Sequence record: OQ378934.1
From: Escherichia phage LH2
DNA: 64,000 nt
Direction: 5' to 3' (one strand)
The stretch's first letter is position 1. Every line of letters starts with the position of its first letter. This document shows positions 1,179 through 7,655 of this stretch, one piece after another. A program made the position numbers and the translations under genes. The notes under the pieces were generated by a model, which did no database searches, was not told the origin of the DNA, and was given only the letters and a program-made list of their open reading frames with translations.

Positions 1179-1534
1179 TTTATTGGAGAGTCACTGCCTT
1201 AGTGTGAAGTTAAAACGAGGAGCCGTCGAACTGTCTGATTAATGATTTGCGAATCATTATAGTTTTAAGACCCCGGCAGTTTTACGGTGTACCTCTTGAA
1301 TGTTATTCTTATAGCGGCAAGTGCATGCTACCCCGAGGTGATGGCTAATCGGGAGTACGCCTCAAGGCCTATATATCCATCAGTATATATCTTATCCTCG
1401 AGAAATCGGACCCGGAACCTTTAAGCTAACGGTGTGCAACAGATAAGAGCTATAAGGTATGATGACGGGTTTATGGTTATCCTGGTCGTTAAATATTCAA
1501 AAACCTATGTTCCCCTTGAGGGCTTGCGCAGGCA
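1179..1534. other. ORF-free, GC-rich block; candidate structured RNA or decayed element
   Basis: Stops in all six frames; local GC about 50 percent versus about 35 percent for flanks; contains palindrome TAATGATTTGCGAATCATTA. Confidence 0.3.
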
Positions 1535-1576
1535 ATGCCAATAAGTCCTGCATTTTCATTTAAAAGAGAATTTATA

Positions 1577-1753
1577 ATGGCAAAACAAGCTAAAGCAAAG
1601 AAAGCAGTTGAAAAGAAAGTTGGTGATTCTAAACGCGCTGGTTACAAGCGTGGGTCGAACTCTCGTATCAATCAAACTGTTGAGAAGATCATGCGCCGAG
1701 CACGTGCGGTTCTTCGAGATGATGCTTCTCGTTTTGGTAAGCAGAAAGCATAA
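1577..1753 (+). CDS. small basic protein, 58 aa from ATG 1577 (72 aa if from ATG 1535)
   Basis: Lys/Arg-rich ORF ending at a strong terminator. Confidence 0.5.
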   Translation: MAKQAKAKKAVEKKVGDSKRAGYKRGSNSRINQTVEKIMRRARAVLRDDASRFGKQKA

Positions 1754-1757
1754 GTTA

Positions 1758-1787
1758 AGGACTCCTTCGGGAGTCCTTTTTTATTTT
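1758..1787 (+). terminator. rho-independent terminator
   Basis: Hairpin AGGACTCCTTCGGGAGTCCT followed by a T-run. Confidence 0.7.
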
Positions 1788-1806
1788 CCAAAGATTGCAC
1801 AAAGTT

Positions 1807-1855
1807 GTTTACAGTATGGTTCCTTTGTGATAGTATTATCTTACACAAACAAAGG
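1807..1855 (+). promoter_or_regulatory. early promoter (GTTTACA, 17-nt spacer, TAGTAT) overlapping a stem-loop
   Basis: T4 early promoter consensus; stem CCTTTG/CAAAGG overlaps the -10; same module layout recurs at 56858, 57191 and 60532. Confidence 0.5.
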
Positions 1856-1863
1856 AGAATAAA

Positions 1864-1914
1864 ATGAAAACGATTAATCGGGTTACGGTCATTGGGCTGA
1901 TGTTGAAATTATAA
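1864..1914 (+). CDS. 16-aa leader ORF
   Basis: ATG preceded by AAAGGAG Shine-Dalgarno; too short to be confident. Confidence 0.2.
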   Translation: MKTINRVTVIGLMLKL

Positions 1915-1923
1915 GTATTAAAG

Positions 1924-2382
1924 ATGTCTGAATTAGAGATTAGAAGCAATTTTAGATGGCCATCATGTGCATTAAGCAATTTCGCCCAATGGCCTTTCGT
2001 TATGGATGGTATCCAATTTGGAGGTCTCGAAGGATTCCTCCAAGGATGTAAGGTGAAAAATGTTGAACACCAACGTCGTATATTTGGGTTATCTGGGCTT
2101 GCCGCCCAACAAGCTGGAAGGTCTTATGCTAGAGCTCAGGACCGTGGCACGTTGTTCTGGCTTGGAACTCCGTTTTCAAGATACTCCTCAGCGTGGAAAG
2201 AATTATACACAAATGCATATTTTGAAGCAGCGTTCCAAAACAAGGGCTTTCGTGATGCATTACAAGTCTCGAAAGGAAAAGTTTTGAAGCACAGCATGGC
2301 TAGTGGTCTAACAAAAGATGATACAATACTAACCGAAGCTGAATTTATTGATGTGTTAAACCTATTAAGAGACTCTCTATGA
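1924..2382 (+). CDS. NADAR (YbiA/DUF1768)-like protein, 152 aa
   Basis: N-terminal stretch LSNFAQWPFVMDGIQFGGLEGFLQGCK resembles the NADAR signature as I recall it from E. coli YbiA; C-terminal half matches less well. Confidence 0.45.
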   Translation: MSELEIRSNFRWPSCALSNFAQWPFVMDGIQFGGLEGFLQGCKVKNVEHQRRIFGLSGLAAQQAGRSYARAQDRGTLFWLGTPFSRYSSAWKELYTNAYFEAAFQNKGFRDALQVSKGKVLKHSMASGLTKDDTILTEAEFIDVLNLLRDSL

Positions 2383-3242
2383 AGCCTACTATTTTAACTG
2401 ATATTGATGGAGTATGTTTAAGCTGGCAATCAGGTCTTCCTTATTTTGCTCAGAAATATAATCTTCCATTAGAACATATTTTAAAAATGATCCAAGATGA
2501 GAAATTTATTTCTCCGGGTAAACTCTTTAATTGTGATGAAGAACTTGGCGTCAAGTTAATTGAAAAATACAATCGTTCAGATTTTATTCGTTACTTGTCT
2601 CCGTATAAAGATGCCCTGTGTGTAATTAACAAATTAAAAGAAGATTATAATTTTGTAGCTGTTACAGCATTGGGTGATTCTATTGACGCTCTGTTAAATC
2701 GTCAATTTAATTTGAATGCTCTTTTTCCTGGTGCCTTCTCAGAAGTAATGATGTGTGGTCATGATTCTTCAAAAGAAGAGTTATTCAAAAAGGCAAAAGA
2801 GAAATATAACGTAATTTGTTATATTGACGATCTCGCTCACCACTGTGACCACGCGAGTGAAATATTGAATGTTCCTGTTTATTGGATGGCTCGAGGAGAG
2901 CGTGACAATATTCCAAAAACTGCGCAGCGAGTTTATACATGGAATGATGTAGAAAATAAGCTTTTTTCGCCGAAGGAAAATAAAGAAAGTTTTGATAGTG
3001 AAAAAGCTATAAAAGATGTAATTGAGAAGATGGTTAAAAACGATTCTTTTCGTTGGAACACTACCTGGAGAACTCCTGGATTTAATCCGTATAATCCATA
3101 TTATACACATCCATATAATCCATATTATACACACCCGTATCATATGAATCCATTCCATACGTGGAGTTATACTAAGCCTGGTGATGCAGGGTATTTTAAT
3201 AGATTTACTAGTGGTGATAATATTTTCCAAGGAGCATTCTAA
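2379..3242 (+). CDS. HAD-superfamily hydrolase-like protein, 287 aa, with repeat-rich Pro/Tyr C-terminus
   Basis: N-terminal motif ILTDIDGV fits HAD motif I (DxDG); ATGA overlap with the upstream ORF. Confidence 0.5.
   Translation: MKPTILTDIDGVCLSWQSGLPYFAQKYNLPLEHILKMIQDEKFISPGKLFNCDEELGVKLIEKYNRSDFIRYLSPYKDALCVINKLKEDYNFVAVTALGDSIDALLNRQFNLNALFPGAFSEVMMCGHDSSKEELFKKAKEKYNVICYIDDLAHHCDHASEILNVPVYWMARGERDNIPKTAQRVYTWNDVENKLFSPKENKESFDSEKAIKDVIEKMVKNDSFRWNTTWRTPGFNPYNPYYTHPYNPYYTHPYHMNPFHTWSYTKPGDAGYFNRFTSGDNIFQGAF
3091..3138 (+). repeat. tandem 24-bp direct repeat, two copies, inside the HAD-like gene
   Basis: ATAATCCATATTATACACATCCAT then ATAATCCATATTATACACACCCGT; encodes the repeated YNPYYTHP peptide. 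Confidence 0.8.
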
Positions 3243-3511
3243 TGTTTGTCGTTCACACTATTTATGAAAATGAAGGTAATACTACACGTGATTACGGTCA
3301 CGTAAATCAATTTTTTAGATGCAATCCAGAATTCCGAGCTCAAAAAGACGAACGAATTTTTAAAAAATGTGTAGAGCAAGGTTTCATTTACGTCAAGCAC
3401 TGGATGCAAGGAAATAAAGTTAGAACTACATATCATAAGTCTTTGCCTGAGCTTAATGATGAATTGATTTATAATAGAGCTGTAAATCAAACTCTGAAGG
3501 ATGAACAATGA
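3242..3511 (+). CDS. hypothetical protein, 89 aa
   Basis: ATG ORF overlapping the ligase start by 4 nt; position of T4 30.1. Confidence 0.5.
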   Translation: MFVVHTIYENEGNTTRDYGHVNQFFRCNPEFRAQKDERIFKKCVEQGFIYVKHWMQGNKVRTTYHKSLPELNDELIYNRAVNQTLKDEQ

Positions 3512-4968
3512 TTCTTAAAATTCTGAATGAAATAGCATCTATTGGATCAACTAAGCAGAAGCAAGCAATTCTTGAAAAGAATAAAGATAATGAATTGCTT
3601 AAACGGGTATATCGTCTGACTTATTCTCGTGGGTTACAGTATTATATCAAGAAATGGCCTAAACCTGGTATTGCTACCCAGAGTTTTGGAATGCTGACTA
3701 TTACCGATATGCTTGACTTCATTGAATTCACGTTAGCTACTCGGAAATTGACCGGAAATGCTGCAATTGAGGAATTGACTGGATATATCACCGATGGTAA
3801 AAAGGATGATGTTGAAGTTTTGCGTCGAGTGATGATGCGAGACCTTGAATGCGGTGCTTCAGTATCTATTGCAAACAAAGTTTGGCCAGGTTTAATTCCT
3901 GAACAACCTCAAATGCTGGCAAGTTCTTATGATGAAAAAGGCATTAGTAAGAATATCAAGTTTCCAGCTTTTGCACAGTTAAAAGCAGATGGAGCTCGGT
4001 GTTTTGCTGAAGTCCGAGGTGATGAATTAGATGATGTTCGTCTTTTATCACGAGCTGGTAATGAATATCTAGGATTAGATCTTCTTAAGGAAGAGTTAAT
4101 CAAAATGACTGCTGAAGCCCGCCAGATTCATCCAGAAGGTGTGTTAATTGACGGCGAATTGGTATACCATGAGCAAGTTGAAAAGGAACCAGAAGGCCTA
4201 GATTTTCTTTTTGATGCTCCTGAAATCAGTAAAGCTAAAGAGTTTGCCGAAGTAGCTGAATCTCGTACTGCTTCTAATGGAATCGCCAATAAATCTTTAA
4301 AGGGAACTATTTCAGAAAAAGAAGCCAAATGCATGAAGTTTCAGGTCTGGGATTATGTTCCGTTGGTAGAAATATACGGTCTTCCGGCGTTTCGTTTAAA
4401 ATATGATGTACGTTTTTCTAAACTAGAACAAATGACATCAGGATATAATAAAGTAATTTTAATTGAAAACCAAGTAGTAAATAACCTAGATGAAGCTAAG
4501 GTAATTTATAAAAAATATATTGACCAAGGTCTTGAAGGTATTATTCTCAAAAATACCGATGGATTGTGGGAAAATGCTCGTTCAAAAAATCTCTATAAAT
4601 TTAAAGAAGTAATTGATGTTGATTTAAAAATTGTAGGAATTTATCCTCACCGTAAAGACCCTACTAAAGCAGGTGGATTTATTCTTGAATCAGAGTGTGG
4701 AAAAATTAAAGTAAATGCAGGTTCAGGCTTAAAAGATAAAGCCGGTGTAAAATCACATGAACTTGACCGTACTCGCATTATGGAAAACCAAAATTATTAT
4801 ATTGGAAAAATTCTAGAGTGCGAATGCAACGGCTGGTTAAAATCTGATGGCCGCACTGATTACGTTAAATTATTTCTTCCAATTGCGATTCGTTTACGTG
4901 AAGATAAAACTAAAGCTAATACATTTGAGGATGTATTTGGTGATTTTCATGAGGTAACTGGTCTATGA
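3508..4968 (+). CDS. 30: ATP-dependent DNA ligase gp30
   Basis: 486 aa; active-site lysine motif KADGARC; near-identical to recalled T4 ligase. Confidence 0.95.
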   Translation: MILKILNEIASIGSTKQKQAILEKNKDNELLKRVYRLTYSRGLQYYIKKWPKPGIATQSFGMLTITDMLDFIEFTLATRKLTGNAAIEELTGYITDGKKDDVEVLRRVMMRDLECGASVSIANKVWPGLIPEQPQMLASSYDEKGISKNIKFPAFAQLKADGARCFAEVRGDELDDVRLLSRAGNEYLGLDLLKEELIKMTAEARQIHPEGVLIDGELVYHEQVEKEPEGLDFLFDAPEISKAKEFAEVAESRTASNGIANKSLKGTISEKEAKCMKFQVWDYVPLVEIYGLPAFRLKYDVRFSKLEQMTSGYNKVILIENQVVNNLDEAKVIYKKYIDQGLEGIILKNTDGLWENARSKNLYKFKEVIDVDLKIVGIYPHRKDPTKAGGFILESECGKIKVNAGSGLKDKAGVKSHELDRTRIMENQNYYIGKILECECNGWLKSDGRTDYVKLFLPIAIRLREDKTKANTFEDVFGDFHEVTGL

Positions 4969-5153
4969 AAGCTTACTTAGAAACAATTGTCATTGCTCAA
5001 AAAGAAGGTGGAGATGTTTCTACTTCTGTATCACAAATCGTTCTTGAATTTGTAGATGCATATGCTTATAATAAATTCACAGAAACATTTGATGCCTATG
5101 AAAAAGGTCCAAAGTTTGAAATATATCGTACTCTCTTACCATTAGATTATTAA
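4965..5153 (+). CDS. hypothetical protein, 62 aa
   Basis: ATG overlaps the ligase stop (ATGA); ends at a terminator hairpin. Confidence 0.45.
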   Translation: MKAYLETIVIAQKEGGDVSTSVSQIVLEFVDAYAYNKFTETFDAYEKGPKFEIYRTLLPLDY

Positions 5154-7269: not shown

Positions 7270-7455
7270 GTGGAACTTATTACAGAATTATTTGACGGCG
7301 CTTCGGCGCCGGTTGTTAACTTAAATCCTAAGCATAAAATACCACAAATTTTTGCTATTCAAGCCGGCGAAGAAAGCGTGCTTCCTGGATTTAGATTTTG
7401 TACATACACCTCTGGCGGTGATACAAATAAAACGTTAAACCAGGCGACAAAATGA
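7270..7455 (+). CDS. paralog of the Alt N-terminus, fragment A (GTG start, 61 aa)
   Basis: MELITELFDGASAPVVNLNPKHKIPQIF... aligns to Alt residues 2 to about 60; frame ends where a 1-nt deletion relative to alt occurs. Confidence 0.4.
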   Translation: MELITELFDGASAPVVNLNPKHKIPQIFAIQAGEESVLPGFRFCTYTSGGDTNKTLNQATK

Positions 7456-7655
7456 TGCATATCGTAATGATAGGTGTTAATGAGAAACTATCATTAGTTA
7501 AGCTTAAAAACTTGGGTGGAAATCCAATTGGTGTCATTAATGCTGTTTTTGATACTGCTCTTCAAACAATGAAACAGTATAAAATCGACGCATGCCTATT
7601 ACGCGTACTAAAAAGTTCAAAATGTAGTTTACAAGTCCCTCGTGTTGTGTTATAA
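7452..7655 (+). CDS. paralog of the Alt N-terminus, fragment B (67 aa)
   Basis: MMHIVMIGVNEKLSLVKLKNLGGNPIGVINAVFDTALQTMKQYKIDACLLRVLKS aligns to Alt residues 65-130 in a shifted frame. Confidence 0.4.
   Translation: MMHIVMIGVNEKLSLVKLKNLGGNPIGVINAVFDTALQTMKQYKIDACLLRVLKSSKCSLQVPRVVL

Follow-up and report, generated by a model that had tools for sequence, protein, structure and literature searches.

Here, we describe the segment of Escherichia phage LH2 (OQ378934.1) that carries genes 30.3 (adfN) and 30.2, located within a stretch of 64,000 nucleotides (hereafter the window). By megablast, positions 1500-3600 match 770 T4-like records, 497 of them covering at least 80% of this interval, which identifies the window as T4-like (Tequatrovirus). 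The first 8 kb of the window contain, on the plus strand, 31.1, 31, rIII, 30.9, 30.3, 30.2, 30.1, 30 (ligase), alt.1 and alt, and the map of the segment agrees with the annotated T4 and G50 records (features in Table 1). A first-pass annotation, made from the sequence alone, had proposed a NADAR-like gene (ORF 1924-2382) and a HAD-like gene (ORF 2379-3242) next to ligase and Alt. Both ORFs are confirmed on the plus strand at these coordinates, and relatives of their products occur in 1510 (gp30.3) and 1438 (gp30.2) phage records; by sequence comparison, both are genuine conserved genes rather than fortuitous ORFs. Ligase (PF01068, 1.8e-32) and Alt (PF03496, 1.4e-34) both lie downstream, Alt being an exoenzyme-type ADP-ribosyltransferase (ART) 3' of the pair. 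No DarT1 gene is found beside adfN, whose neighbors are 30.9 and a deletion scar upstream and 30.2 downstream, and Alt is the sole nearby ART. The adfN gene is an orphan NADAR gene and not a member of a DarTG1 operon, as published for AdfN.

Table 1. Features of the 30.3-30.2 segment and its flanks in the window
Feature	Coordinates	Strand	Evidence
Intrinsic-terminator-like hairpin (1757-1778) and T-run, past gene 30.9	1757..1788	+	9-pair stem, then TTTTATTTTC
Promoter-like site: TTTACA, 17 nt, TAGTAT, with TG	1808..1836	+	Consensus match only
16-aa ORF, deletion scar	1864..1914	+	Alignment to both sides of the G50 locus
adfN (T4 gene 30.3), predicted phage-type NADAR DNA ADP-ribosylglycohydrolase, 152 aa	1924..2382	+	PF08010, T4 identity, model, literature
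Gene 30.2 catalytic domain, predicted HAD phosphatase with C1 helical cap, NT5C-like	2379..2966	+	Motifs I-IV
Gene 30.2 C-terminal tail, ~90 residues	2967..3242	+	Model disorder, homologue comparison
Tandem repeat of a 24-nt unit (2.3 copies), coding for the PYNPYYTH repeats of the gp30.2 tail	3085..3140	+	90% matches, score 98
Gene 30.1 (DUF3045), next in the chain of overlapping genes	3242..3511	+	PF11243, 5.6e-63
Gene 30, ATP-dependent DNA ligase	3508..4968	+	PF01068, 1.8e-32

Genes 30.3 and 30.2 overlap by ATGA, with the ATG at 2379-2381 and the TGA at 2380-2382. This overlap had been read as a sign of co-translation; it is present and is not distinctive, being one link of a longer chain in which 30.2/30.1 (TAATG), 30.1/ligase (ATGA) and ligase/alt.1 (ATGA) also overlap, so that four consecutive overlaps run from 30.3 to alt.1. 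Across the window, 19 such start/stop overlap junctions are found among ORFs of at least 50 aa. The ATGA overlap was rejected as evidence of a dedicated pair because overlaps run through five genes (30.3, 30.2, 30.1, ligase and alt.1), which would be transcribed and translated as one chain. The chain is conserved synteny of T4-like phages and not the sign of a dedicated two-gene module.

Upstream of adfN, the hairpin past gene 30.9 stands at a site that carries a terminator annotation in phage G50, and the promoter-like site, which in T4-like phages precedes gene 30.8, lies here 88 nt upstream of adfN. A 16-aa ORF follows, preceded by a strong Shine-Dalgarno site (AAAGGAGAA) and with a stop codon that ends 9 nt ahead of the adfN ATG. 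The first-pass annotation had called this ORF a leader; the ORF and its Shine-Dalgarno site exist, but the ORF is the scar of a 1.43-kb deletion. It is made up of the Shine-Dalgarno site, ATG and first five codons of gene 30.8, joined in another reading frame to 3'-terminal sequence of 30.4, with the junction at approximately 1879/1880 and a 30.4 remnant of the last ~35 nt. The window lacks 1,428 bp present in T4 and G50, comprising 30.8, 30.7, 30.6, 30.5 and most of 30.4, and the 2,101 bases of positions 1500-3600 extend over 3,529 bases in G50 and related records. Of 563 matching phage records, a single one (CJY920) crosses the junction without a break. The strong Shine-Dalgarno site and the closeness of the stop codon to adfN could suggest a leader peptide that regulates the pair, but the ORF starts on the 30.8 start codon, its final nine sense codons and stop are out-of-frame 30.4 sequence, and T4 lacks it, as do all the related records but one; we rejected this candidate and regard the reading as scarcely credible. 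Ribosomes ending at the ORF might nonetheless aid initiation of adfN in this phage, and the deletion has placed the promoter-like site and the strong ribosome-binding site of 30.8 just upstream of adfN.

The product of adfN is identical to T4 gp30.3 at 146 of 152 residues (96%) in an alignment of all 152 residues, the six substitutions being (window residue first) H49Q, T82V, S89P, F104I, V115A and M125I. It matches the Pfam family Phage_30_3 (PF08010) at 1.1e-67 with 226.6 bits (cut-off 36). The pattern that had suggested a NADAR domain is seen at residues 18-43 (S18-N19-F20, W23-P24-F25, D28-G29, F32, E36, F38, Q40 and K43). The protein has no direct match to Pfam NADAR (PF08719) at E≤1; 25 of 68 gp30.3 homologues do match this family (best 1.5e-07), and several homologues are labeled YbiA/DUF1768 in their source databases. 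The sole PDB sequence match is E. coli YbiA, at E 0.99 with the single sequence and E 0.0085 with a profile of the 68-sequence family, and the single-sequence alignment pairs SNFA-WP-DG-E-F-Q-K. An AlphaFold model of gp30.3 (pLDDT 93.3, pTM 0.89) was compared with the PDB using Foldseek, and the top three matches were 2b3w (YbiA; 5.4e-05, TM 0.67), 8bau (Phytophthora NADAR) and 8bat (Geobacter NADAR), with all others at E>2; these three NADAR structures are the only credible PDB fold matches of the model. The catalytic residues E36, K43 and H123 are all kept, with E36 and H123 invariant and K43 conserved in at least 90% across the 68 homologues. In the model, H123 is located in the last strand (120-123) and the C-terminal helix is intact (residues 138-151); residues 126-152 are identical to T4. 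The Phage_30_3 match, the homologues in PF08719, the YbiA profile match, the NADAR-only fold matches and the E36/K43/H123 set bear out the NADAR assignment, and transitive sequence links together with the predicted structure place gp30.3 solidly in the NADAR superfamily. The conserved catalytic residues, together with the intact C-terminal helix, lead us to predict an active AdfN.

The function of this protein is known from T4, in which gene 30.3 has been renamed adfN, for anti-DarT factor NADAR (Johannesman et al., 2025, Nat Commun; PMC11825919). Deletion of adfN renders T4 sensitive to DarTG1, so the knockout on DarTG1 hosts suggested by the first-pass annotation is already published, and RB69, whose own adfN copy is 15 residues short and less active through loss of the C-terminal helix, is rescued by ectopic, plasmid-borne adfN alone (PMC11825919). 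Purified T4 AdfN takes ADP-ribose off DarT1-modified DNA in vitro, and the protein is weakened by E36A, by K43A and by removal of the C-terminal helix (PMC11825919). In an independent study, T4 gp30.3 cleaved guanosine-ADPr and not thymidine-ADPr (PMC11125620). The proposal that the window protein counters DarT by guanine de-ADP-ribosylation has accordingly been demonstrated experimentally for the 96%-identical T4 AdfN (PMC11825919, PMC11125620); for the window adfN, guanine-ADPr removal and DarTG1 resistance would follow from orthology. The window AdfN would cleave the N-glycosidic linkage that joins ADP-ribose to guanine in DNA and would thereby erase host DarT1 marks from replicating phage DNA, allowing growth on DarTG1 hosts. 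T4 AdfN gives no protection to uninfected cells or to unrelated phages (PMC11825919, PMC11125620); therefore, an extra in vivo requirement is indicated, and a link to a neighboring gene is conceivable. AdfN is fully active only in T-even infections, and another T-even protein may be required (PMC11825919).

In comparison with T4 AdfN, the window protein shares E36, K43, H123, the C-terminal helix and the position of its gene upstream of 30.2. It differs by the six substitutions and by its 5' context, where expression signals are not those of T4 because 30.8 to 30.4 are deleted. The NADAR antitoxins of the DarG1/BC4488 type (e.g., Geobacter lovleyi 8bat) and YbiA (2b3w) resemble gp30.3 in their fold and in the Glu/Lys pair of the active site, and likewise hydrolyze guanine-ADPr (PMC11125620). 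Compared with DarG1-type NADARs and YbiA, the window gp30.3 is shorter, is an orphan without DarT, and has a His on the last strand, the position being His in phage NADARs, Glu in YbiA and Asp in DarG1-type NADARs (PMC11125620, PMC11543638). Unlike the DarG1 type, the T4 orthologue is incapable of acting as an antitoxin in uninfected cells.

ORF 2379-3242 encodes a 287-aa protein that is identical to T4 gp30.2 at 260/288 positions (90%). The HAD motif I reported earlier, LTDIDGV, is present at residues 6-12, and the full motif set consists of I (D8-x-D10, TDIDGV), II (T96), III (K132) and IV (D150-D151). Alignment of 57 gp30.2 homologues reveals a conserved N-terminal domain of ~195 residues in which D8, D10 and K132 are invariant and T96 and D150-D151 nearly so. 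D151 is invariant in close and distant relatives, T96 is conserved in at least 90% of both, and D150 in at least 90% of close relatives. Among relatives of 22-40% identity, D8, D10, R108, N111, K132 and D151 are invariant and G11, V12, W16, T96 and W188 nearly so; the family-specific conserved residues are W16, R108, N111 and W188. When 1.84 billion representatives were searched in full by HMM, 1353 gp30.2 relatives were recovered, 622 of them at ≤1e-10, and most of the 1353 are ~190-215 aa long and correspond to the catalytic domain alone, without the tail. No extra domains were recognized in the longer 30.2-family proteins (P0252, P0303, P0205, P0245 and others).

The model of gp30.2 has a confident domain with a Rossmann-like HAD core and a four-helix C1 cap that is inserted past motif I and closes the active site. 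The protein has no match at E≤1 to Pfam and NCBIfam models, including the HAD profiles PF00702 and PF13419, and weak matches to curated HAD profiles are found only in some relatives (13 of 57 close, 11 of 46 distant); from these comparisons, the phage gp30.2 clade appears too divergent for the PF00702 and PF13419 models. The HAD assignment of the first-pass annotation therefore stands on the four intact motifs and the C1-capped model, and not on a direct match to a curated profile. Neither placement, NADAR for the first gene or HAD for the second, was overturned, and catalytic residues are present in both ORFs. Among PHROGs, gp30.2 belongs to the unknown-function family phrog_420 (3e-89) and weakly matches polynucleotide kinase (PNK; E 0.0012). 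The sole PDB match of the single sequence, RanGAP, is spurious. The close-family profile matches the deoxyribonucleotidase cdN (2jao) at 0.028, and the broad-family profile matches deoxyribonucleotidase-like 3bwv at 4.4e-05, spanning 3bwv entirely. Pfam NT5C (PF06941) is matched by 21 of 46 distant and 10 of 57 close relatives, and not by the window protein itself. These sequence profiles point to the 5'(3')-deoxyribonucleotidase (NT5C) branch as probably the nearest to gp30.2.

With the NT5C family (mouse/human cdN and mdN, 2jao, 1mh9; S. epidermidis 3bwv), gp30.2 shares the HAD fold with C1 cap and the DxDGV, T, K and DD motifs. In the profile alignment, the aromatic position eight residues past the nucleophile is W16 in gp30.2 and Phe in the DGVLADF motif of cdN. 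In contrast to that family, gp30.2 has the family-specific invariant residues R108 and N111 and a disordered tail of ~90 residues; identity is only 16-21%, and the window protein falls below every Pfam threshold. With high confidence we regard gp30.2 as a catalytically intact member of the HAD superfamily, and with moderate confidence as a nucleotidase-like phosphomonoesterase whose substrate would be a small molecule of the nucleotide type. It would most likely be an Mg2+-dependent phosphomonoesterase that forms an aspartyl-phosphate intermediate at D8, and during infection it would dephosphorylate a substrate of the nucleoside monophosphate type.

In the C-terminal tail of gp30.2, a single short helix is followed by a disordered stretch with a high content of Pro, Tyr, Asn and His, and the tail varies across phages. 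The model shows residues ~200-287 as largely disordered; pLDDT is <50 at residues 228-231, 250-257 and 259-287. An extra copy of the PYNPYYTH repeat is absent from T4, and this tandem repeat makes the window gp30.2 nine residues longer than its T4 counterpart. Tail classes differ by phage group, with recurring motifs GTGIEY..QPT, LRAYY and LLNKV..NDS. Sequence variation of this kind suggests that the tails are interchangeable docking modules, and the disordered tail would probably tether the enzyme to a partner.

The proposal that adfN and 30.2 work as a dedicated pair is not supported, as each gene occurs without the other alongside. No Phage_30_3 gene was found near the 30.2 homologue in the stretches examined at loci L003, L007/L008 and L014 (diverged T4-like contexts), and no 30.2-like neighbor of the adfN homologues was detectable in two families of non-T4-like contigs. 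Two neighbors of distant adfN homologues, of 254 aa (L009) and 199 aa (L012), were rejected as hidden 30.2 relatives, with hhalign probabilities of at most 0.2% and no Pfam matches. The most constant neighbor of 30.2-like genes is the DNA ligase gene, which lies directly 3' of the 30.2 homologue in L003, L005 and L007/L008 and two genes upstream of it in L014. Thus adfN and 30.2 are probably not an obligate pair. The dependence of AdfN on the T-even infection context makes neighboring 30.2 the obvious first candidate for a helper, and since AdfN fully works only in that context, a helper role of gp30.2 is retained as a low-probability idea. A functional module, in which gp30.2 helps AdfN in vivo or processes its product (free ADP-ribose or breakdown products), could draw on the adjacency and ATGA overlap of the genes, their near-identical distribution over T4-like phages, their adjacency in an Acinetobacter phage, and the suggestion that full AdfN activity may need another T-even protein (PMC11825919). 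Across T4-like phages, each of the two is a near-core gene, and host genera are similar for the 1510 gp30.3 and 1438 gp30.2 records, but the shared distribution is accounted for by synteny within one virus family, and either gene is found without its partner beside it, as above. Moreover, AdfN by itself acts on DNA in vitro, and RB69 is rescued by plasmid-borne adfN alone, although this rescue is compatible with a helper, as 30.2 may come from RB69 itself. Nucleoside monophosphates are the substrates of NT5C-type enzymes, for which action on ADP-ribose is not known. We consider such a module quite unlikely.

The proximity of ligase raises another reading, in which gp30.2 is an end-healing 3'-phosphatase that readies nicks for the adjacent DNA ligase, like the HAD domain of T4 polynucleotide kinase/phosphatase (PseT). 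A 30.2-like gene adjoins or lies near a ligase gene in every distant T4-like locus examined, and the weak PHROG match to PNK leans the same way. Like gp30.2, PseT is a phage-encoded HAD protein of the T4-like early-gene region. The best profile matches of gp30.2, however, are to nucleotidases rather than to PNK. The phosphatase of PNK lacks a cap and works on nucleic-acid 3' ends, whereas gp30.2 is modeled with a four-helix C1 cap covering its active site; a closed helical (C1) cap is typical of HAD enzymes that act on small molecules, and macromolecule-directed HADs are capless. As T4-like phages already carry a nearby PNK/HAD phosphatase, and adjacency within a syntenic block carries little weight, an end-healing role for gp30.2 seems very unlikely. 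It is unlikely, too, that gp30.2 is a counter-defense or AdfN-supporting enzyme and not a housekeeping nucleotidase, either as the T-even-specific factor for AdfN or as a destroyer of nucleotide alarm molecules, with the tail docking on a partner. Were this so, the targets could be modified dNMPs (m6-dAMP) freed by degradation of the host chromosome, and the variable disordered tail would dock on a phage or host partner. Modified dNMPs such as m6-dAMP are sensed by at least one defense system, and no link to 30.2 was found in the paper that describes it (PMC12871103). For AdfN, it could be supposed that the main in vivo substrates are soluble ADP-ribose derivatives (immune signals), or protein/RNA targets of the phage's own ADP-ribosyltransferases Alt, ModA and ModB, and not DarT1-modified DNA; against this stand the DarTG1 sensitivity of T4 upon loss of adfN and the stripping of ADPr from DarT1-modified DNA by the purified protein, which leave this highly improbable. 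AdfN may nonetheless have an additional substrate.

We therefore favor, with considerable confidence, the reading that the region is the Tequatrovirus 30.3-30.2 segment, with adfN and a HAD nucleotidase-like 30.2 in a syntenic chain, no dedicated module, and a 30.8-30.4 deletion. The main finding is already known as AdfN, and the HAD gene is the orthologue of the uncharacterized T4 30.2. That a phage NADAR defeats DarT via guanine de-ADP-ribosylation has been known since 2024-2025 from T4 AdfN, and the window adds one orthologue. No paper in the library searched mentions gp30.2, and the gene stands out as a near-core T4-like gene that encodes, on sequence grounds, a clearly intact HAD phosphatase for which no published function was found. 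The deletion from 30.8 to 30.4 indicates, in addition, that a natural isolate can do without these five small genes.

The genes from adfN (gene 30.3, encoding the NADAR protein gp30.3) to alt.1 are joined by four start/stop overlaps in unbroken succession (coordinates of all features in the table below), a sequence arrangement which implies that they would form a single block with translational coupling. Upstream of adfN, a natural deletion relative to T4 and the related phage G50 has removed the stretch from gene 30.8 to 30.4, and among the 563 matching records this deletion is common to phage CJY920 only. Several database proteins (P0014, P0015, P0017 and P0054) consist of a Phage_30_3 fragment joined to fragments of the 30.4, 30.7 or 30.8 families, which suggests that the 30.8-30.4 stretch is a recurrent site of deletions.

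Features of the adfN-alt region of phage LH2
Feature	Position	Strand	Details
Deletion of genes 30.8 to 30.4	1864-1924		1,428 bp vs T4 and G50; junction ~1879/1880
Overlap chain	1924-5153		30.3/30.2 ATGA; 30.2/30.1 TAATG; 30.1/ligase ATGA; ligase/alt.1 ATGA
ORF within adfN	2060-2287	+	75 aa; other reading frame
gp30.2 C-terminal tail	2967-3242		Disordered; Pro/Tyr/Asn/His-rich
Tandem repeat in gp30.2 tail	3085-3140		24 nt; 2.3 copies (T4, one fewer)
Two short ORFs	7270-7655	+	61 and 67 aa; both repeat the Alt N-terminus (MELITELFD...)

The ORF inside adfN is the counterpart of T4's annotated 30.3', described there as 'internal translation in a different reading frame', and the two short Alt-like ORFs match T4 alt.-1 and alt.-2, a pair that the annotation attributes to an old duplication of part of alt. 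At 152 aa, the window protein has the same length as T4 gp30.3, whereas a published 'E. coli T4 phage NADAR (gp30.3)' construct is given in the methods as residues 1-208 (PMC11125620).

The tails of homologues of gp30.2, the probable HAD-type phosphatase encoded next to adfN, fall into several motif classes unrelated to each other. T4 gp30.2 carries the widely conserved motif GIEY..(N/Q)(R/Q)PT, whereas the window protein has the changed form DAGYFNRFT. In distant T4-like contigs (L003, L005, L007/L008 and L014), a DNA ligase gene lies directly downstream of the 30.2-like HAD gene or at most two genes away, and this proximity is kept even without 30.1 and adfN; in L014, the genes around the HAD gene include uvsY, uvsW and a Tad2-like gene. 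An adfN homologue, P0038, is found outside T4-like phages on a 308-kb contig and its relatives (L009-L011), and the contig carrying it looks like that of a jumbo phage. With a NUDIX gene ~2.6 kb away on the opposite strand and a Thg1-like gene farther out, the surroundings of P0038 may represent another ADP-ribose or RNA-repair neighbourhood.
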